Virus record (IMG/VR): IMGVR_UViG_3300028482_000001
Location: 16,556-80,555 of that record
Source: a virus
Lineage: Duplodnaviria > Caudoviricetes
DNA: 64,000 bases
Strand: one strand, 5' to 3'
Shown: positions 18,002-35,671 of the stretch, piece after piece
Position numbering within the stretch: the first letter of the stretch is position 1
Layout: each line of letters begins with the position of its first letter
Notes under the pieces: generated by a model
The model's database searches: none
The model's input: only the letters and a program-made list of their open reading frames with translations
What the model was told of the DNA's origin: nothing
Translations under genes and position numbers: made by a program

Positions 18002-18631
18002 ATGGTAAAATTGGTTATCAAGAAATCTGCTTATGTAGAGCTTTTAAAATCTTTTGGAGTGAAATACAAATATAAAAAACTCATAAATGGAAAATGGAGA
18101 TATTACTATGCGGATGATAGGGAAATATCTGTTAGATGGCATGAACACAATGCAACAAAACAAGAATTAAGAACTTTTATACACGATACAATAACTAATC
18201 CAAATTATGATGAAAATATTAAATTGTGTGATATACCTAGTCATTTTTCAAACAAACTTAAACTAAAATTAGGGATAAATATAGACAGTTTAACAATGGG
18301 AAGTTCTGAATTAAGACATTCGTTAAATCTAAGAAAACATAATATATCATCGGAAGATATTTTATTATTCAGACGAACAATACAAAATAAACATACAATT
18401 ATTCGTTATGAAGGTACTTCAAGAAGAAGAAAAACTAATTTGATAAAATTTAAAGGATATTCAAGAGGTACTATTTATTTTATAGCTAGTTATAATAAAT
18501 ACGGAGAATTAAAACTGTTTGATTGTTATAGGGAAGGCAAAATAGAAAAATCTGTGAGACTTCCATGTACATGCCCGGAAGCTAACGCCCTTGACGATTC
18601 ACAGCCTATACTTATAGTAACGCTTTTATAA
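18002..18631 (+). CDS. Putative head-cargo protein with PBECR3-like RNase domain
   Basis: N-terminal 'KLVIKKS..LLKS..KYKYKK.NGKWRYYY'; core 'LGINIDSLTMGSSELRHSLNLRKHNISSEDILL' resembles BECR-fold phage nucleases. Confidence 0.55.
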   Translation: MVKLVIKKSAYVELLKSFGVKYKYKKLINGKWRYYYADDREISVRWHEHNATKQELRTFIHDTITNPNYDENIKLCDIPSHFSNKLKLKLGINIDSLTMGSSELRHSLNLRKHNISSEDILLFRRTIQNKHTIIRYEGTSRRRKTNLIKFKGYSRGTIYFIASYNKYGELKLFDCYREGKIEKSVRLPCTCPEANALDDSQPILIVTLL

Positions 18632-18642
18632 AAAATTGTCAA
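18545..18642 (-). ncRNA. Antisense promoter plus ~62-nt hairpin sRNA (copy 1)
   Basis: Minus-strand TTGACA(18642-18637)-17-TACTAT; CUGUGA/UCACAG closing stem, internal CUUCC/GGAAG stem, U5. Confidence 0.55.
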
Positions 18643-23058: not shown

Positions 23059-26000
23059 ATGGGAAAACTAGTAATTAAAAAATCTGTTGCAAATCAAATA
23101 ACAAGCAAATTAAAAACTCATAAAAATGATGATATAACGCCCGAATTTGCAGAAAATCTGCAAAAATCGGACTTATTTTCTGAAAATAAGCAAGTTTCAG
23201 TCAAATTACAGTCAAATAAAAATATAGGTGTAACTCCTGATGATTGTTATTATGATTTAGATAATCCCACAGAGAAATTTTATTATGATTTGAAAATGAA
23301 ATTTGCTCAGAGTGATAAAGCAGATGATATTGAGAAATCACATAAATATATAAGACGATGGAAAATGAATAATGGTGAATGGAGATATGAATATCCAAAA
23401 GGGGTTGATAAAAAAATACATTCATTTAGAGATGTAACAACAGCTCTAACAAATAAGACAACAGAAATAAAAGATATTCAACCATTAACAACAGAAAAAC
23501 AGATTGATGCAGAGCTTGAAAGATTAACAAAACTTTCAGAAGAAGGAAAACTTACTTGTCCGGCTTTAGGAAATGCAAATATTTACATTGAAGATATGAC
23601 TACAGAACATGCAGAAAAAACAAACGGTGTATTTAGAACAAAGGAAGCTAAAATTCATAAGTTACAATATCTTTCTTTTGTTGAAGATGTTCTTAAAAAT
23701 GGTATTCTATTTATGAAATCACGTAAATACAATCATGCTTGGTCATTAGATAAGATTTCAGAAAGAGAAAGAACTACTTATGGAATTATTAACAAGGTTA
23801 CATATTTTGACAAAAAGAAAAATAAAAACATAACATGTGGAATGGAAATTGTTGTTGCGTGGGATAATGAAAGAAAAAGGTTTGTGTTTTCATTTATTGA
23901 TAGACAAATAAAAAAATCCTTGTTATTTAACAAGGATTTTCAAACGACCACTTTCGAGGCGGGTCAGGTAGGTGCTTGTAAAACAGAGGCTTTTTCTACC
24001 ACCGACTCTATAATACCACATTTGATAAATTTGTCAAGTAGAAATGTAAATAAATCCCTTACTTATTCTGGTTATAAATTACAAGGTAGAACTAGACTTT
24101 ATGGCATGGATATTTCCATTGAAAATAAAAAAGGAAGTTATAGATGTGGTGTAGATTCAGATGGTCATAAGTGGGAAATTTTAATGCACTATGATTATGG
24201 ATATATTAGGGGAACTGTAGGAGTAGACAAAGATCACTTAGATTGTGTAAGCCCAGAAACAAAAATCTTAATGGCTGATTATACTGAAAAAAGTGCTGCA
24301 GATATAAAAGAAGGCGACGAACTTATTGGAATTAAATTAGAAACACAACAGCATAAGCAGCGAAAACAGATTAAAACTAAAGTTATTCATGTCAAAAAAG
24401 GTATGGATGATATGCTAGATATTACTCTTGAAAATGGTGTAAAACTGAGAACTACTAAAGGTCATTTACATTATTATTTTCAAGGTAAGACAAGAGATAA
24501 GTATTGGAAGCGTGCTGATGAATTAAAAATTGGTGATAAACTTGTAATGATTTACAATCATCATAATTTTGAAGAAACAGAAGATTATAAAAAGGGTTAT
24601 CTCTTTGGAGCTTATATCGGCGATGGATGTTATAATTTTGATGAATCAAAACAGGTTTATTGTGATATTAGAAAAGGCGTTGCTTTTATTGATGTTATAC
24701 ATAGAGTAAAACAATATTGGAATGATTTAGGTTTAGAAACATCTAAGATAAGAATAGACAAACCTAGACAGACAAATTCTTTATTAGCAGATGGTAGAAA
24801 AGTTATATCTAAAATGGATTTAGCTATATTATCTATTAGAGGTATAAACAAAATAAGATATATTAAATCAATTCTTGTAAAAAATCCTAAATCTTTTGAA
24901 TGGTGTCGTGGTTATATCGCTGGTTTATTTGATACAGATGGATGCTTGAATTGTAGACATGAATTCCTGATAACTCAAACCAAAAATCAAGATGAATTTA
25001 TGAAATTTACAATTGAATGTATTAATAAATTGGGTTATCAAGCAGTAAAAAGATACAATGAAATTAAATTACATACAGATTATATGGCTGATAATATAAC
25101 AATGGAGTTTACTCAAATTATTAAGCCAGCTCTTGAAAAGAAAAGAAACTTTTTAGGCCAAACTTATAGATATGAGCCATTGGAAATTGTGGATATAAAG
25201 CCATATACCGGGGAGTTTGTTGCTATTCAGACTGATGAACAGACATATATTGCAAATGGACTTGTAACACATAATTGCTATGTTGGACCAGATAAAAACA
25301 CAAAAAAAGTTTATGTAATTCATCAAAACAATCCTATTACTCATAAATACGATGAAGATAAATGTATGTTGTGTTTTGAAAGTGCAGATGCAGCCAAAAA
25401 AGCATATATGAAACAATATGATAGACCAGGATTTTTTGGAAGTATGGAAACATTAACTGTAGAACAATTCAAAACTTTTGTATTTTCAAAACAAGGTAGT
25501 AGAATACACAAATCCTTTGATATTGAAATAACTGATATTACTGAAAATAATAAGCAAAGAAAAGTTGAGCAAGTAGAAAAGGCATTAAACGCTATTTATA
25601 ATAACAAACCTTTTGTAATTGAGCATATTTCAAAAAAATTAGATTTCTCAAGAAAATATAATGATATTTTAATGAGAATTACTGATTTTGATAAAAACAA
25701 AATTGAAAAAGCTGTACATTCATTGGCATTTACATTAGATACTAAAGTTAAGGCAAGTAAAGGAGAGGCCTTTGTATATGCCAGTCAGGAAGATTTAACA
25801 AATCAGATTGTTAATGAAATTACTGAAAAAACAAAAAAGATTTATAATTTCGTAATTTCATTTTTTGACTTACCTGAAATTACTATCGTAAGAAAAGCAA
25901 ATTTAATTCATAAAGGGAAAATAATATACAATCCTGAAACAGGAGAACCTGTGAAAAAAGCAGAGTGGGATAAATTTGTAGAAGAATTAGAAAAAATGCT

Positions 26001-26706
26001 TAATAAAAATTATATGGGGTATGGTGAAAAAATAGTTTTAAAAGGTGAAACGTTAGGACTGATTTTAGATCGTCTTGCAAAAACTAATTCTTTTGAAGCA
26101 ATTCAGAAGAAAAAACTTTCGGACATTGTATATAAACGAAAACATTTTGATTGGATTTCGGATGATATAAAAAATTTAAAAACTATTATTGGTGAACCTA
26201 TATCAAGGGAACGGGCAGCAAGAATTGAAGTTGCGATGCAGAGTGTAGGGCAAAGAATATCAAGGGTAAAAGATTCTCTTAAAAATGAAATCCAGCAAGT
26301 TATTATTGACGGAATTAAAAACAAAGAATCGAAGAGAGTTGTTTCTCAAAATTTGTTTGATAAGTGTGTAGGACTTAATCGAGATTTTCAAAAAATTGCA
26401 GATAGTGAAATCCAAAATACAGTTAATAATGCATATATCAAAGAAGAAGTTTTTAATTCAGACGAAAATGAAAAAATCTATTTTAAAAGGTTTGAAGTGA
26501 TAGATGATAACACTTGTTCAAAATGTAAAAAAATAAAAGGGAAACTTGCACTTTATAGCAAAGTTCCTTTGGATGATGAACATATCAAGGATGAGTATGC
26601 TGATTATGCAATATGGGAAGGTAAAGTAGATGGAGATTTGCCTATGGGGATATTGCATCCTTATTGTCGTGGATCGTGGGTTAGGTATTATCCGGAGGTT
26701 GATTGA
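23059..26706 (+). CDS. Polyvalent protein: BECR/LPD3-like nuclease + InPase-like domain (intein-split) + MuF-like head morphogenesis domain
   Basis: InPase motifs 'ISIENKKGSYRCGVDSDGHKW..YGYIRGTVGVDKDHLD|CYVGP..YDEDKCMLCF'; C-terminal 'C..C...LHPYCR' MuF motif. Confidence 0.75.
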   Translation: MGKLVIKKSVANQITSKLKTHKNDDITPEFAENLQKSDLFSENKQVSVKLQSNKNIGVTPDDCYYDLDNPTEKFYYDLKMKFAQSDKADDIEKSHKYIRRWKMNNGEWRYEYPKGVDKKIHSFRDVTTALTNKTTEIKDIQPLTTEKQIDAELERLTKLSEEGKLTCPALGNANIYIEDMTTEHAEKTNGVFRTKEAKIHKLQYLSFVEDVLKNGILFMKSRKYNHAWSLDKISERERTTYGIINKVTYFDKKKNKNITCGMEIVVAWDNERKRFVFSFIDRQIKKSLLFNKDFQTTTFEAGQVGACKTEAFSTTDSIIPHLINLSSRNVNKSLTYSGYKLQGRTRLYGMDISIENKKGSYRCGVDSDGHKWEILMHYDYGYIRGTVGVDKDHLDCVSPETKILMADYTEKSAADIKEGDELIGIKLETQQHKQRKQIKTKVIHVKKGMDDMLDITLENGVKLRTTKGHLHYYFQGKTRDKYWKRADELKIGDKLVMIYNHHNFEETEDYKKGYLFGAYIGDGCYNFDESKQVYCDIRKGVAFIDVIHRVKQYWNDLGLETSKIRIDKPRQTNSLLADGRKVISKMDLAILSIRGINKIRYIKSILVKNPKSFEWCRGYIAGLFDTDGCLNCRHEFLITQTKNQDEFMKFTIECINKLGYQAVKRYNEIKLHTDYMADNITMEFTQIIKPALEKKRNFLGQTYRYEPLEIVDIKPYTGEFVAIQTDEQTYIANGLVTHNCYVGPDKNTKKVYVIHQNNPITHKYDEDKCMLCFESADAAKKAYMKQYDRPGFFGSMETLTVEQFKTFVFSKQGSRIHKSFDIEITDITENNKQRKVEQVEKALNAIYNNKPFVIEHISKKLDFSRKYNDILMRITDFDKNKIEKAVHSLAFTLDTKVKASKGEAFVYASQEDLTNQIVNEITEKTKKIYNFVISFFDLPEITIVRKANLIHKGKIIYNPETGEPVKKAEWDKFVEELEKMLNKNYMGYGEKIVLKGETLGLILDRLAKTNSFEAIQKKKLSDIVYKRKHFDWISDDIKNLKTIIGEPISRERAARIEVAMQSVGQRISRVKDSLKNEIQQVIIDGIKNKESKRVVSQNLFDKCVGLNRDFQKIADSEIQNTVNNAYIKEEVFNSDENEKIYFKRFEVIDDNTCSKCKKIKGKLALYSKVPLDDEHIKDEYADYAIWEGKVDGDLPMGILHPYCRGSWVRYYPEVD
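23910..24037 (-). ncRNA. Antisense promoter plus ~94-nt sRNA with terminator (copy 2)
   Basis: Minus-strand TTGACA(24037-24032)-16-TGnTATTAT; terminator aaaatccttgtt/aacaaggatttt + U7. Confidence 0.6.
24244..25275 (+). mobile_element. 344-aa intein with LAGLIDADG homing endonuclease
   Basis: Starts 'CVSPETKILMAD', ends 'YIANGLVTHN' followed by +1 Cys; endonuclease blocks 'YLFGAYIGDG' and 'YIAGLFDTDG'. Confidence 0.95.
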
Positions 26707-26730: not shown

Positions 26731-26895
26731 TTGACAAGTCGTAAATTTTATATTATAGTTTGATTATTAGTATTAATTTTAATACTAGTTGTTTTAAATA
26801 AAGAGTTGCGTATTTGTTTAAGACTATTACTAACCTATTATCTTTTTTCAACGCAACCCTAGATGACTAGGTGAAAAAAGGTGATAGGTTTTTTA
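26731..26895 (+). promoter_or_regulatory. Promoter, operator palindrome and structured attenuator leader
   Basis: TTGACA-17-TATAGT; tagtattaattttaatacta; terminator 26832-26850/26872-26890 + T-tract. Confidence 0.7.
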
Positions 26896-30736: not shown

Positions 30737-33700
30737 ATGGGAAAAATGGCAAAGATTATTGTTAATTTGAATGAATTAAAAGGATTTTCTTTTTATCGTA
30801 ATTACATAGAAAAGGCGAAAAAGGGTGAAATGGTTGGTGGTAAATACATGTATAGGGAAGAAGTTCCTGAAAAAGTAAAAACAAGTAAAGGGAAAACTAC
30901 CGTAATTAGATATAAATATTATTATTTGACAGATATGCTTAAAGATAGTGCAGAAAAACTTCTTGAAAATATCGGTAAATTCTTTTTCAAGGGAAATGAA
31001 AAGGAAGTAAAAAAAATTGAAAATTCCTATAAAACTCAAAACATAGAAAAAGATTATGGAGCAGATAAAAAGACGTGGTATCAGCATTGTATGGAATATT
31101 TGAGCCACAAAGCAAAATGGGATAAAAGATTTTCAAATAAAGATAATGCTGAAAAGTTTAAAACACCTATCAAACAAAAAGTCGTAGAAAAAGTTGATAT
31201 TCCCGGAATGGAAACAGCAGCAGTAGAAACTCCAGAAATTAAAACATCAATTGAAACAGAGAAAAAAGAGGCAACCTGGAAACCCAACCCATCTTTAATG
31301 CGTAAAGTTTGGAGTTTATACAATGGTGTAGAATCTGTTAATAGCGGAGTTAGCGTTGGTGATACTGTAAATTTTAATGGGCGAAAAGGAACTGTAACAA
31401 AAAAAGTAAATGACAATATGGTTATGGTAAGTTTTGAAGATGGAGGTTTAGGCAGATTCTTTGCAAAAGACTTAAACAAAGTTGAAATTTCAAATGAAAG
31501 TGTAACAAATGAAGCTGATGTAAATGGTAAAATACAAGAAGTTGTAACAGGGCTAAATACTTCTAATGATACAGTTGAAGAAACAACGGATGGACAAGGT
31601 AATAAAATTGCAATGTTAGGTAACCAGAATGCAAAAAAGAATTTCGTTGACTTTATTGATAAGTTTATTACAAATGGTTATAAATCTGATAAGGTTGTAA
31701 ATCTTTTAGATACAACACCTTTAATTTTGCAAGAACATGGTATTCCAAATAATCCTATAAGTATAACACCTTCTGTTTTGAAAAAGATTTTAGAAAATGA
31801 TTTAAATGTTTATCATGGTCATAATATTTCTGTTGATATTTTAAAGGATCTACCTAATCAACTTGAAAATCCTGTTTATATACTGAAAGGTAAGGATGGG
31901 AAAAAGATTATTGTTACAGAATACTATGTAGAAAATAGACCTATAATTACAATTCTTGAAATAGATAGAAAAGAAGGTCGTACAAATGTAAATTCTGTAA
32001 GAAGTTTATATGATAAACAGAATACTGTATTTATGGAATGGATAAAAGATGATTCCATAGTTGAATATGAAAATAAAGAAAAAAGTAAGGTGCTATTACA
32101 GTCCATAGGTAACCAATATACCAAGGAGGTAACAACACCTTACATAAATAATAATACCACAAATATAGAAAATGTCAATAGTGAACATGGGAATTCTATA
32201 GCCATGCTTGGTAATGATAATGCTAAGAAAGATTTTGTTGATGTAAAACAAGGTTTTTCTGAAATGGATAAAAAACTTCTTGCTTTAGCATTGTACAAAG
32301 AAAAAGAATTTAATCCAACAATGAATGATTATTATTATTATGAAAAATTAAGATATAAATATCCTAATTTAGCTTCTAAAGGTAGTATTTATTCAATTAT
32401 GGAAGAATTAAAAGGAATAGATGTTAAAAATATAAACCTTGATGAAGTAAAAGAGTATGTAGAAAAGATTAAAGGTGGGGGTGATGAACCGCCAAAGAAT
32501 GATGCAAAAAAGAATTTCGTTGACGGATTGTCGCTTGATACAGAGTTAATTGCAAATGCAAATAATTCTTCATATATGTATGAAGCTGGAGATGCTATTA
32601 ATCGTGAATATCTTGGCGGAATTGAGGCTATCAATTCATGGGATTTGACAGATGAAGAAAAACAGAAAGCTAAACAAAAACTTTTTGAACTTACAACGGA
32701 ACAGTTAAAAGCCCAGGCAAAGGCTATATCTGTAACAGTCGCAGGACCAGCTAGGAAAGTAAGTGGAAGTGATACAGCATTTGATAAAGTTCAGAAAATC
32801 CGTGGGAAAATTAAAGAACTTCTTGATACAATAAGAGCTAAAAATAATACAAATGTTCAGAAACAGGAAATGAAAGATTTTACAACAGCAGCAACAGAGG
32901 CCATGAATAATAATAAACTTGCTTTTGTGTATGATGGTAAAGTTTATTATCGTGGTAATATAAAATCAAGCTCTTGGAGTGAAATAAATCATATTCCAGA
33001 AGTTGATGAAACAAAGACTGTTGATGAAAAGAAAAAAGAGTTGAAGAAACTCAAAGAAGAAAGTAAGAATCTCGGTTTTGCTAATCCAGAGAACACAAAA
33101 ACCCTTGATAGAATTGAAAAACTTAAAAATGAAATTGCATATATGAATACTGATGAATGGCAGAATCGACATAATGCCATGCTCGGTAATCAAAACGCAG
33201 CAAAACCATTTTCAGAAGAAGAAACAAAAAAAGAACAAAAGAAAGTAAAGGAAACAAGAGAAAAAGCAGGACTACCTAAAATAGGAATAAATTATGGGGA
33301 GAGAGTTTCTGCTATGGAAGATTCAGTTTCTCTTAATCCTAATGCGGAAAACTATGCTTATAAAGATACAGGTTATATTGCAGGTTCTCAAAAAGAAAAG
33401 ATTCAAGACTTTTGGAAAATAAAAAAGGAAAGTGGTGAAGGAACAAGTATAGAAGAAATAGATTGGAATACACTTGAAGAAAATCCTAGATATGCAGAAC
33501 AACAAATTACAAAATCAAATATTCTTGGAAATATTGATTATAATTCATTCAAAGAAAAAGGAATGGATTCTAGGGCAGCGTATTTAGCAAGTAGAGTATT
33601 TGCCGCAATTCCAAAAGAACCTACAGGTCATGATGTTACTGCTCGTAAGAATTATGTAATTGCTATAAACACAGTAAAGGAAAGACTTTCTGAATGTAAA

Positions 33701-35671
33701 ACTTTACAAGATGTAAAAGAGTTTGTTGATGATGTTTATGGTGAATATAATCAGACATTTGATTCTCAGATTTTAAGAGTTCCAGAAGTTAATAAACTAA
33801 CACAAGAAAGAGATGGTATTATTAAAGAGAAGAAAAAAATTAGAGAATCTGTTATGGAATGGTGTAGGAATGAACTTGTTCCAAAATATAAGAATCTCGG
33901 TAAAAAAGAAAGAAAGGCTTTTTGGAGATATAGGGAAGAATTAAAGAAAGAAATTAGTGAGAAAATTCGTGAATTTGATCCTAATTATAATAATCCTAAT
34001 ATAGATATTGAAATTGATACAAGTAATATGTGGTGGCCTATAAATATTTCCTCAGAAGGTATTTTACAAGAGAAAATAGATAAAGCTAATAATAAATTAA
34101 AAACAGCAAGAGAAAACGCAAAAAATATCATTATGAATAATAATGTTACTTATCAAGTTTGGAAAGAACTAGGGGATTTTGCAGATTTGCGTTATTCAAA
34201 AACATTCCAAAAACATTATAACAATCTGACAGTTTATGATGAAAAACAAGCAACAAAACCTAATGGCGAAATTTACGAAACTTATGCTTATAAATATAGA
34301 GATAAAGAATATGATAAATATGAAAATTGGGATTGGATTGATAAAAAAACTAATAAAAAAGCAAAACCGGAATCTGAGATAATCGAGGGGAAAGTAAAGA
34401 GAACTTTTGAAATGATTGTGCCATCTACCATAGAAAGGATTGGAGGTAGAAATGTTTCTGTTAAATCTACAGAAGAATTAAAAAAAGCATTTAATTTCAG
34501 GGATATTCAAACAGGGTCTTATGTACAATCAGATCCCGTTAGTGCTAAATGGCATATAGACAATTTAGCGAATGGTTTCGCTGATTTATGTGATGTTTTG
34601 GGGATACGAGATGATCAAGTATCTCTTAATGGAAGGTTGGCTCTTGCTGTTGGTGCTAGAGGACATGGTAGAGCCTTAGCACATTATGAACCTGTTGAAC
34701 GAGTAATTAATATTACAAAATTCAAAGGTGGTGGTTCTCTAGGGCATGAATGGTTTCATGGTTTTGATAATATGATTGCCGAAGCAATTACAGGTGGAAA
34801 TGTCAGTGTATATATGTCAGATCCAAGAGCAGCAAGTAAAAAATATAGGTTGCATGATGATATTCCAGATAATGAACTTGCTCATAATGTAAGAAATAAA
34901 TTTATTAATCTTGTAGATGCAATGATGACAGGTGATACTCCTGAAACAGAAGTAATTACATATAAATCTATAGATGTAGAAACAGCAAAAAAATTCTTTG
35001 AAAAAGATTTGCCATTCCAGGCTGCATATTATAGTTATGGTAATGATTTTTATAAGAAATTAGCTAATGCAAAAACTCTTGATGATGCAATATCAGTAAT
35101 TAATGAAAGGTATAAAGATACAATAAATCTTATTCATAACAATTCAGAAAAAATTAGTCGCATGGGTAAATACGAACAAAAACGCATGAAAGATACAGTT
35201 AAAAATTATGAAAAGTATCGAACTATGGCAGTTGCATACTTTGATACAAAGGCTGATAAATCTAATGGTGGAGAAGTTTCTGTAAAGACAGGAAGAATTG
35301 TTTCAAGATTTTATGAAGATTCAAAAAAATTAGATATTGGGAGATCTAAAAAATATTGGTCTGAACCTGTAGAAATGGCTGCAAGAGCATTTGAAGCTTA
35401 TTTAGTTGATAAATTAAAGGAAAAAGGTCAGAAAAATGATTATCTTTCAGGTCATGCTGATAATACAGTTTATTTAGGGGAATGGTTTCCATATCCAACT
35501 GAAAAAGACAGAGTAAAAATAAATAAAGCCTTTGATGAATTATTTGAAGTAATCAGAAATGAAAATGCAATTAGAAAATCTTTAGATATATTAAAGAATC
35601 GTGAAGAAATAAAAAAATCACTTCCTTTATTCTTTATTAAAAATGGCAGATTCTATATTAGAAAATCATAA
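30737..35671 (+). CDS. Large polyvalent protein (MuF-C/BECR-like nuclease, LPD1-like domain with HExxH)
   Basis: 'TPLILQEHGIPNNPI..HGHNIS..LPNQLENPVYIL..NSVRSLY' nuclease-like region; 'LALAVGARG..AHYEP..GSLGHEWFH..YWSEPVEMAARAFEAY' LPD1-like. Confidence 0.7.
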   Translation: MGKMAKIIVNLNELKGFSFYRNYIEKAKKGEMVGGKYMYREEVPEKVKTSKGKTTVIRYKYYYLTDMLKDSAEKLLENIGKFFFKGNEKEVKKIENSYKTQNIEKDYGADKKTWYQHCMEYLSHKAKWDKRFSNKDNAEKFKTPIKQKVVEKVDIPGMETAAVETPEIKTSIETEKKEATWKPNPSLMRKVWSLYNGVESVNSGVSVGDTVNFNGRKGTVTKKVNDNMVMVSFEDGGLGRFFAKDLNKVEISNESVTNEADVNGKIQEVVTGLNTSNDTVEETTDGQGNKIAMLGNQNAKKNFVDFIDKFITNGYKSDKVVNLLDTTPLILQEHGIPNNPISITPSVLKKILENDLNVYHGHNISVDILKDLPNQLENPVYILKGKDGKKIIVTEYYVENRPIITILEIDRKEGRTNVNSVRSLYDKQNTVFMEWIKDDSIVEYENKEKSKVLLQSIGNQYTKEVTTPYINNNTTNIENVNSEHGNSIAMLGNDNAKKDFVDVKQGFSEMDKKLLALALYKEKEFNPTMNDYYYYEKLRYKYPNLASKGSIYSIMEELKGIDVKNINLDEVKEYVEKIKGGGDEPPKNDAKKNFVDGLSLDTELIANANNSSYMYEAGDAINREYLGGIEAINSWDLTDEEKQKAKQKLFELTTEQLKAQAKAISVTVAGPARKVSGSDTAFDKVQKIRGKIKELLDTIRAKNNTNVQKQEMKDFTTAATEAMNNNKLAFVYDGKVYYRGNIKSSSWSEINHIPEVDETKTVDEKKKELKKLKEESKNLGFANPENTKTLDRIEKLKNEIAYMNTDEWQNRHNAMLGNQNAAKPFSEEETKKEQKKVKETREKAGLPKIGINYGERVSAMEDSVSLNPNAENYAYKDTGYIAGSQKEKIQDFWKIKKESGEGTSIEEIDWNTLEENPRYAEQQITKSNILGNIDYNSFKEKGMDSRAAYLASRVFAAIPKEPTGHDVTARKNYVIAINTVKERLSECKTLQDVKEFVDDVYGEYNQTFDSQILRVPEVNKLTQERDGIIKEKKKIRESVMEWCRNELVPKYKNLGKKERKAFWRYREELKKEISEKIREFDPNYNNPNIDIEIDTSNMWWPINISSEGILQEKIDKANNKLKTARENAKNIIMNNNVTYQVWKELGDFADLRYSKTFQKHYNNLTVYDEKQATKPNGEIYETYAYKYRDKEYDKYENWDWIDKKTNKKAKPESEIIEGKVKRTFEMIVPSTIERIGGRNVSVKSTEELKKAFNFRDIQTGSYVQSDPVSAKWHIDNLANGFADLCDVLGIRDDQVSLNGRLALAVGARGHGRALAHYEPVERVINITKFKGGGSLGHEWFHGFDNMIAEAITGGNVSVYMSDPRAASKKYRLHDDIPDNELAHNVRNKFINLVDAMMTGDTPETEVITYKSIDVETAKKFFEKDLPFQAAYYSYGNDFYKKLANAKTLDDAISVINERYKDTINLIHNNSEKISRMGKYEQKRMKDTVKNYEKYRTMAVAYFDTKADKSNGGEVSVKTGRIVSRFYEDSKKLDIGRSKKYWSEPVEMAARAFEAYLVDKLKEKGQKNDYLSGHADNTVYLGEWFPYPTEKDRVKINKAFDELFEVIRNENAIRKSLDILKNREEIKKSLPLFFIKNGRFYIRKS
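32078..32178 (-). ncRNA. Antisense promoter plus ~65-nt hairpin sRNA (copy 3)
   Basis: Minus-strand TTGACA(32178-32173)-16-TGnTATTAT; 15-bp closing stem (32085-32099/32129-32143) + U6. Confidence 0.6.

Follow-up and report, generated by a model that had tools for sequence, protein, structure and literature searches.

The window analysed here is a 64,000-nt stretch (bases 16556-80555) of a complete 80.5-kb Caudoviricetes phage genome with terminal repeats, IMG/VR record IMGVR_UViG_3300028482_000001. Its minus strand carries, between positions 24037 and 23910, a predicted small-RNA gene that also serves, when read on the other strand, as a protein linker at the junction of an effector domain. 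On the plus strand, the same nucleotides belong to a 1215-aa open reading frame (ORF; 23059-26706, protein P0001) that lies directly 3' of the portal gene and encodes, in this order, an LPD3-like domain, a segment of 46 aa, an InPase domain split by an intein, and a MuF-like domain. As judged from sequence, the stretch is a selected small-RNA gene rather than a chance motif; it is one of four such units in the phage, and the type recurs in relatives. The predicted unit has three characteristic features: (i) the anatomy of a transcription unit, (ii) conservation in relatives that is independent of the sense reading frame, and (iii) a recurrent position after effector domains. Our preferred, though tentative, reading is that a real minus-strand small-RNA gene, derived from the convergent partner of an effector gene, has become a linker and acts as a cis-antisense brake on the effector domain, similarly to type I toxin-antitoxin (TA) systems.

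Anatomy of the antisense RNA unit

The initial annotation of this DNA proposed an antisense small RNA at 24037-23910, and each of the elements it described was found in place on the minus strand (Table 1). The promoter, TTGACA-16-TGnTATTAT at 24037-24010, agrees with the consensus at 11 of 12 positions, carries the TG element in addition, and obtained the top score in a scan of the 18-31 kb region. By sequence it is an extended -10 promoter of the sigma-70/sigma-A type (TTGACA, a spacer of 16-18 nt, and a TGnTATAAT-like box), and this geometry is shared by more than eight relatives. The predicted 95-nt RNA folds better than all 200 of its 200 shuffled versions (z = -3.0). Both stems, P1 (GGUAG/CUACC) and P2 (GACC/GGUC), are present as described. 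An alternative pairing in the minimum free energy structure, GGUG/CACC, was dropped, and the P1/P2 pairing is supported because this alternative is not conserved in relatives. The predicted transcript ends with a perfect 12-bp terminator stem (23940-23929/23924-23913, -11.9 kcal/mol) followed by U7; taken over 23941-23912, the hairpin comprises 13 pairs, a 4-nt loop, and T7, which is the form of an intrinsic (Rho-independent) terminator.

The sense frame is open throughout the unit, which lies between the Lys-Ser motifs IKKS (aa 284-287) and VNKS (aa 330-333), and the 46-codon linker segment is also present in the protein homologs P0003-P0037. No conserved loop-loop pseudoknot was seen on inspection by eye, the sole method used. 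A search for a minus-strand small peptide gave only a 12-codon GTG frame that has no Shine-Dalgarno sequence and is absent from the conservation of the type-2 sequences described below. Rfam 15 at gathering thresholds gave no match anywhere in the window, and a permissive Rfam search of 23850-24100 yielded nothing credible, the best sub-threshold match being PyrR with 27 bits against a threshold of 54. Sequence analysis confirmed the elements of the unit, and the comparative data given below support a discrete antisense small-RNA gene with a predicted transcript.

Other units in the genome and chance expectation

The 80.5-kb genome contains 13 strong promoters with a perfect -35 and a good -10 hexamer, seven of which are followed by a terminator 40-190 nt downstream, whereas 60 dinucleotide shuffles contain 0.53 such promoter-terminator pairs on average and two at most. 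A chance match in AT-rich coding DNA is highly improbable as an explanation of the unit. Promoter-like hexamers are common in a genome of 30% G+C content, and the scan found fewer of them overall than the shuffles contain; the co-occurrence of promoters with terminators, however, is far above that in the shuffles, and the unit is kept in relatives whatever the sense frame.

Four of the units are on the minus strand, with promoters at genome position 11035 and at window positions 18642, 24037, and 32178; in each case transcription would run against the 3' end of a gene or domain encoded on the plus strand. The units at 32178 and 24037 have an 11-nt extended -10 box in common. The MuF_C domain that precedes the unit at 32178 belongs to a family classed as PBECR, a predicted RNase (Iyer et al., PMC5512222). 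The unit at 24037 had been annotated as a second copy. The architecture is indeed shared, but blastn against the window and the whole genome returned only the self-match of the hairpin and short matches of the promoter box, so that the word "copy" holds for architecture only, because no sequence-similar copy exists elsewhere in the genome.

Two further observations concern these and similar layouts. The RNA at the 171-aa gene has a 3' domain in common with L102, one of the relatives considered below, and a swapped 5' domain. Strong promoters on the plus strand at window positions 26731, 41717, and 48955 have terminators within 55-130 nt and form leader-terminator layouts ahead of late operons.

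Conservation of the unit in relatives

No close relatives of the phage were found in INPHARED (GenBank phage records) and IMG/VR, either by DNA or by a single protein. The DNA comparison concerns a diverged RNA core, here termed type 2, and analogous units, with loci (designated L) drawn from IMG/VR, JGI metagenomes, and GTDB genomes. A 17-mer scan of genome contigs gave ~120 loci, nearly all of them chance matches; the real ones are L139 and L208.

At the protein level, a word-indexed search yielded homologs with 65-84% identity, and their alignment retains the pattern IKKSLL..KD...II.H..NLSSKNV.KSL even where an unrelated domain takes the place of the upstream one; additional domains occur as insertions that separate the LSSKNV box from KSL. 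In an exhaustive search of representatives, the match of stand-alone proteins of ~200-215 aa stops at residue 285 of the query, just ahead of the linker.

At the DNA level, the TTGACA box is kept in L005, L007, L008, L087, L095, L096, L097, L098, and L102, and no long sense frame covers it in L096, L097, L098, and L102. The minus-strand layout follows differing effector domains: the domain is MuF_C in L007, LPD3 in L008, and of unknown type in L005 and L087. In these four loci a perfect -35 hexamer is followed at 16-17 nt by a TAnnnT hexamer, and the structured RNA downstream of it closes with a hairpin and a T-run; the hairpin sequences differ, and the pairing is retained.

The type-2 RNA occurs in diverged relatives of the upstream domain and has a ~52-nt core that is almost invariant. 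This core is an in-frame linker in L095 and L139, and in L102 it is non-coding and follows an unrelated gene of 215 aa, which is a homolog of the gene at the first unit of this phage. The core is also present in a prophage of a Treponema metagenome-assembled genome (MAG; L208/L224), where two tandem promoter-RNA-terminator units on one strand (L224:1501-1710), one of them with the type-2 core, are convergent to a gene of 254 aa that bears a leader. The ORF of L098 stops ahead of the -35 box, and the box is still conserved. L097 contains a stand-alone effector gene, the stop codon of which directly precedes the hairpin; the convergent RNA gene that comes next is non-coding throughout and has the same promoter box and a different core. 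When 151 genomes from the family to which the host MAG of L139 belongs were searched with the RNA model, two weak matches were added, L229 and L230, with the look of a promoter-RNA-terminator unit. From the in-frame, out-of-frame, and non-coding contexts, the conserved entity is therefore the nucleotide sequence together with the transcription-unit geometry, and not the peptide; the comparison shows that the predicted RNA gene is conserved in relatives whatever the sense frame. As a side observation, protein P0122 contains two translated modules in tandem.

The out-of-frame context is provided by L096, where a run of eight A residues (A7 in others) causes the sense ORF to stop in the hairpin loop and leaves the type-2 core out of frame. 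The length of this run (L096:2511-2545, compared with A7 in the window, L095, and L098) toggles the stand-alone and the fused form, and the A8 run may reflect genuine variation, slippage, or an error of sequencing. It bears on an explanation in which the conserved feature is a sense-strand element: the A-AAA-AAA run and the hairpin would provoke ribosomal -1 frameshifting or transcriptional slippage and yield both a stand-alone LPD3-like domain, ending at a stop codon of the hairpin loop, and the full fusion. Such an element would account for the stop in L096 and for the stop codons that interrupt the shifted frame within this loop in the window, L008, L095, and L098. We nevertheless consider it very unlikely, as the hairpin begins within the slippery run and leaves no spacer, stop codons arise in AU-rich loops by chance, and neither the conserved promoter 95 nt away nor the conservation in L097 and L102, where the unit is non-coding, would be explained.

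Signatures of selection

In the type-2 sequences, the promoter spacer is variable, and near-complete identity begins exactly at the predicted transcription start. The type-2 relatives retain a TAnnnT-type hexamer at 16-17 nt despite their differing sequence. Comparison of the window with type 2 revealed one compensatory change of G-C to A-U in stem P1 (GGUAG/CUACC versus GAUAG/CUAUC) and a change of C-G to A-U in stem P2 (GACC/GGUC versus GACA/UGUC); the pairs of P2 were read directly from the sequences, the MAFFT alignment having misplaced its 5' arm by one column. Several pairs of the terminator stem are also changed between the window and type 2, and this stem covaries in relatives. The loops are variable and the stems are kept. 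The RNA module has 79-93% identity versus 68-78% in the upstream coding region, and codon position 3 accounts for 52% of substitutions upstream versus 24% in the module (Fisher p = 5e-4). The units of L008 (E = 2.6e-4) and L097 (E = 0.013) are recovered by a covariance model built from the family.

These data also bear on the proposal that the conserved nucleotides are module-boundary recombination sequences, i.e. Lys-Ser AAATC(C/T) repeats and the LSSKNV box used for in-frame cassette shuffling, with an incidental resemblance to a promoter and a terminator and no functional RNA. Domain cassettes are clearly shuffled here, with extra domains placed between the box and KSL, the segment is edged by direct AAATCC repeats, and the box is common to otherwise different modules. 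Recombination alone, however, explains neither the compensatory changes in three stems nor the 16-17 nt spacing with TAnnnT that persists despite sequence turnover, and it leaves without explanation the U-tract that always follows the hairpin and the fourfold excess of promoter-terminator pairs in one genome. We regard this proposal as unlikely.

Effector domain upstream of the RNA unit

The RNA had been annotated as lying between nuclease and InPase domains. The InPase domain downstream of the unit was identified by PF18823 with E = 8e-37 (Pfam, PHROGs). The nuclease label for the upstream domain was not borne out: this domain has no Pfam or PHROG match of its own, its relatives are weakly LPD3-like, with LPD3 matched by 5 of the 14 members of the family (best E = 9e-4), and its nearest language-model clusters are LPD3. 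In the work of Iyer et al. (PMC5512222), LPD3 is listed among domains of unknown function. The AlphaFold model of the upstream domain (pLDDT 81.5) gave nothing at E <= 1e-3 when compared with PDB by Foldseek, and a profile search of PDB sequences gave no match. A wide structural search reached Z <= 3.4 at best; weak matches to the C-terminal half recur among CdiA-CT, BrnT, RelE, ParE, MqsR, and colicin-type RNase toxins. Pfam and PADLOC gave no match of the domain to the ToxN/AbiQ family, and the fold search gave the weak matches to BECR-type toxins only. On these data, "nuclease" is a lead rather than a result.

Probable origin of the fused form and possible processing of the linker

A stand-alone effector gene converging on a small-RNA gene is likely to be the original form, as suggested by the arrangement of the loci. 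In the starting state, an effector gene and a convergent small-RNA gene would share the hairpin of the latter, as in L097, L096, and L098. Loss of the stop codon would then produce the read-through fusion seen in the window, L095, L139, L008, and L007, among others, and turn the RNA gene into a linker; the 46 residues of the linker are translated through the RNA gene because the stop codon of the effector gene is gone. Effector and InPase-MuF would be connected by the linker within a single "polyvalent" protein of the virion.

Motifs of the x-Lys-Ser type occur in the polyprotein at aa 8, 36, 93, 286, 332, and 818; those at 93, 286, 332, and 818 are conserved, and they are found at every module boundary. 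The stand-alone effector genes (L096, L097, L098, and L224) encode the same short N-terminal leader as the polyprotein, ending in IEK(S/A). The leader and the x-Lys-Ser motifs may represent a capsid-targeting leader and sites of the prohead protease, respectively. The conserved sites and the shared leader suggest proteolytic processing that discards the linker peptide, which may be excised at the bracketing Lys-Ser sites.

Proposed function of the RNA

In the preferred model of a cis-antisense brake, a transcript of ~92-95 nt with two stem-loops would start from the sigma-A/sigma-70-type promoter at 24037-24010 and end near 23912. Host RNA polymerase would produce it whenever the phage DNA is in the cell, including the lysogen; a lysogenic state in which the brake is relevant is plausible because the phage has a CI-type repressor. 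The RNA would be perfectly complementary to ~95 nt of the effector or polyprotein mRNA, and pairing would lower the level of this mRNA or lead to its cleavage outside the burst of late transcription, providing a brake on a potentially harmful cargo domain.

Several points weigh against this model. The covariation is weak, since only three pairs are changed on both sides, a number equalled in 5 of 500 shuffles, and the independent sequences are few. In the stand-alone cassettes, barring mRNA read-through, the overlap of the RNA with the effector gene is limited to the hairpin that both share, so that the mechanism need not be purely antisense. The type-2 core follows non-homologous genes (L102) and stacks in tandem (L224, P0122); because of the L102 context and the tandem stacking, an autonomous, possibly trans-acting RNA fits as well as a cognate brake. 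Finally, a comparison of each small RNA with the 5' region of its effector gene detected no complementarity of the kind known for par (z from -0.1 to -1.1).

The main rival of the antisense brake is a protein-binding or trans-acting role, which we consider possible but distinctly less probable. The RNA would be real and would not pair with the mRNA; it would either bind and neutralize the effector, as a type-III-like antitoxin, an immunity factor, or a decoy, or act in trans. The targets of a trans-acting RNA would be superinfecting relatives with the same module, or host defence, and its adjacency to the effector would reflect co-inheritance only. Consistent with such roles, the RNA genes of L097 and L096 lie beyond the effector stop codon and have only the hairpin in common with the effector gene, the same core follows unrelated genes and forms tandem stacks, the cores are strongly structured and very highly conserved among different phages, and stems are kept while loops vary. 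At the same time, neither tandem repeats nor a ToxN/AbiQ-like protein was found, and a similarity search within the genome gave no target for an RNA acting in trans. Moreover, the type-2 core of a cognate RNA-protein pair should not follow a non-homologous gene, yet it does in L102.

A somewhat more doubtful reading combines several of these roles: a portable, stackable RNA partner, i.e. an RNA antitoxin or immunity factor, would neutralize or time an effector of the LPD3/PBECR type, in fused cassettes the RNA gene would be read from the opposite strand as a protease-excisable linker, and the same DNA would serve as RNA gene, spacer, and recombination joint. If true, this reading would define a new class of toxin-RNA pairs and a new way to build multidomain proteins.

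If the RNA is made, linkers of polyvalent proteins can be complete RNA genes of the opposite strand, an unusually tight case of dual-strand coding, and the effector domains LPD3 and MuF_C gain a regulator. The presence of potentially self-harming phage cargo without a protein immunity gene would then also be explained. Taken together, the stand-alone, frame-shifted, and fused forms document a route into polyproteins by loss of a stop codon across a convergent small-RNA gene.

Comparison with known systems

Type I TA systems with a convergent antisense RNA that overlaps the 3' end of the toxin gene include txpA/RatA and bsrG/SR4 from prophage regions of Bacillus subtilis, and in the par locus of pAD1, RNA I and RNA II share a bidirectional terminator. 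As in these systems, which are often prophage-borne, a small constitutive RNA gene would converge here on the gene of a potentially harmful protein and share or overlap its 3' end and terminator. The predicted unit, as well as the stand-alone loci L096, L097, and L098, has the small RNA convergent to and overlapping the toxin transcript that is characteristic of type I. In contrast to type I systems, the partner is a ~200-aa soluble LPD3-like virion effector (MuF_C in other cases) and not a small, usually hydrophobic killing peptide of the membrane, and translation of the opposite strand turns the RNA gene into a linker between domains. No 5' complementarity like that of par was found for the unit.

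A kinship with ToxI/AbiQ-type RNAs, suggested by the initial annotation, was not supported: the search for tandem repeats (TRF) in 23900-24040 found none of the repeats typical of type III, Pfam and PADLOC revealed no ToxN/AbiQ-like protein, and gene order and strand differ. Type III systems (ToxIN, AbiQ/antiQ, and CptIN) are similar in the genetic linkage of a structured RNA with what may be an RNase-like protein, in a setting of phage conflict. Their antitoxin repeats, however, are located upstream of the toxin gene on the same strand and are processed by the toxin, whereas the RNA described here would be a single-copy convergent RNA with its own promoter.

Among phage antisense RNAs transcribed from promoters inside or beside genes are lambda OOP, the paQ antisense RNA, and P22 sar. 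They resemble the predicted RNA in being short antisense transcripts from strong host-type promoters that damp phage gene expression; unlike it, they belong to single lysis-lysogeny loci, are not portable units of effector cassettes, and have no protein-linker reading. Rickettsia palindromic elements are selfish hairpin insertions that are in frame within protein genes and form dispersed sequence repeats. They likewise represent a hairpin-forming element tolerated in a coding frame, but they have no promoter or terminator of their own, whereas here the anatomy of a full transcription unit is combined with the lack of sequence-similar genomic copies.

Polyvalent proteins of phages and conjugative elements were described by Iyer, Burroughs, Anand, de Souza, and Aravind (2017, PMC5512222). 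The ORF 23059-26706 is a phage polyvalent protein in this sense, since its single polypeptide combines several effector or enzymatic domains that are unrelated to each other, and it is located among virion genes. Its textbook InPase, MuF-like, and LPD3 modules, together with MuF_C, occur among the head genes, and the cassettes are shuffled among relatives. RNA genes at domain junctions are outside the concept of that work, the text of which contains neither of the words "antisense" and "noncoding", and a literature search found nothing on the combination of a polyvalent-protein junction with an embedded antisense RNA gene.

A candidate of similar position comes from Escherichia coli O157 Sakai: an entry in the supplementary table of Tree et al. 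(2014, PMC4104026) gives EcOnc36 as an Hfq-CRAC candidate small RNA of the Stx2 prophage Sp5. If the 2014 coordinates fit the current record (NC_002695.2), EcOnc36 (1301433-1301515, minus strand) lies in antisense orientation inside the part of ECs_1242, a gene of 2793 aa, that encodes MuF_C (L231). It would then be an RNA, detected by experiment, that is antisense to the effector-domain region of a phage polyvalent-protein gene. No consensus promoter or terminator was seen at this site. EcOnc36 also differs in lying within a domain and not in a linker.

Genome setting and feature coordinates

The genome encodes a CI-type repressor, an antirepressor, the large terminase, and the portal. The C-terminal head-morphogenesis region of the polyvalent protein is MuF-like (PF04233). 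A 344-aa LAGLIDADG intein (24244-25275, aa 396-739) splits the active-site region of the InPase domain (DKDHLD|C...HN|CYVGPD), and this intein is precisely absent from the 870-aa homolog P0004.

Table 1. Positions of the predicted RNA unit, the surrounding protein modules, and the other minus-strand units (window coordinates unless stated otherwise)
Feature	Position	Strand	Remarks
-35 hexamer TTGACA	24032..24037	-	sense strand reads Leu-Ser codons within peptide NLSS
Extended -10, TGn + TATTAT	24010..24018	-	after 16-nt spacer ending TGG; TATTAT at 24015-24010, sense reading Ile-Ile
Predicted small RNA, ~92-95 nt	23910..24003	-	start predicted ~7 nt after -10, end in U-tract
Stem P1 GGUAG/CUACC, 24-nt loop	23967..24000 (24000-23996 / 23971-23967)	-	pairs in all six sequences
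Stem P2 GACC/GGUC, 12-nt loop beginning CGCC	23946..23965 (23965-23962 / 23949-23946)	-	type-2 relatives GACA/UGUC
Putative intrinsic terminator, 12-13 bp hairpin + U7	23910..23941	-	sense strand reads KKSLLFNKDF
LPD3-like effector domain, aa 88-286	23320..23916	+	also occurs as stand-alone genes ending at this point
Linker, 46 codons, aa 287-332	23917..24054	+	edged by AAATCC (Lys-Ser) direct repeats 138 nt apart
InPase (intein-split), then MuF-like region	24055..26706	+	Pfam, PHROGs
Minus-strand unit	genome 10840-11035	-	3' end of 171-aa gene
Minus-strand unit	18540-18642	-	3' end of 209-aa gene
Minus-strand unit	32085-32178	-	follows MuF_C domain (PF18819)

The window encodes a second polyvalent protein of 1644 aa (30737-35671) with MuF_C and LPD1 domains, the cassettes of which are edged by repeated junction peptides of the form AMLGN.NAKK.FVD.

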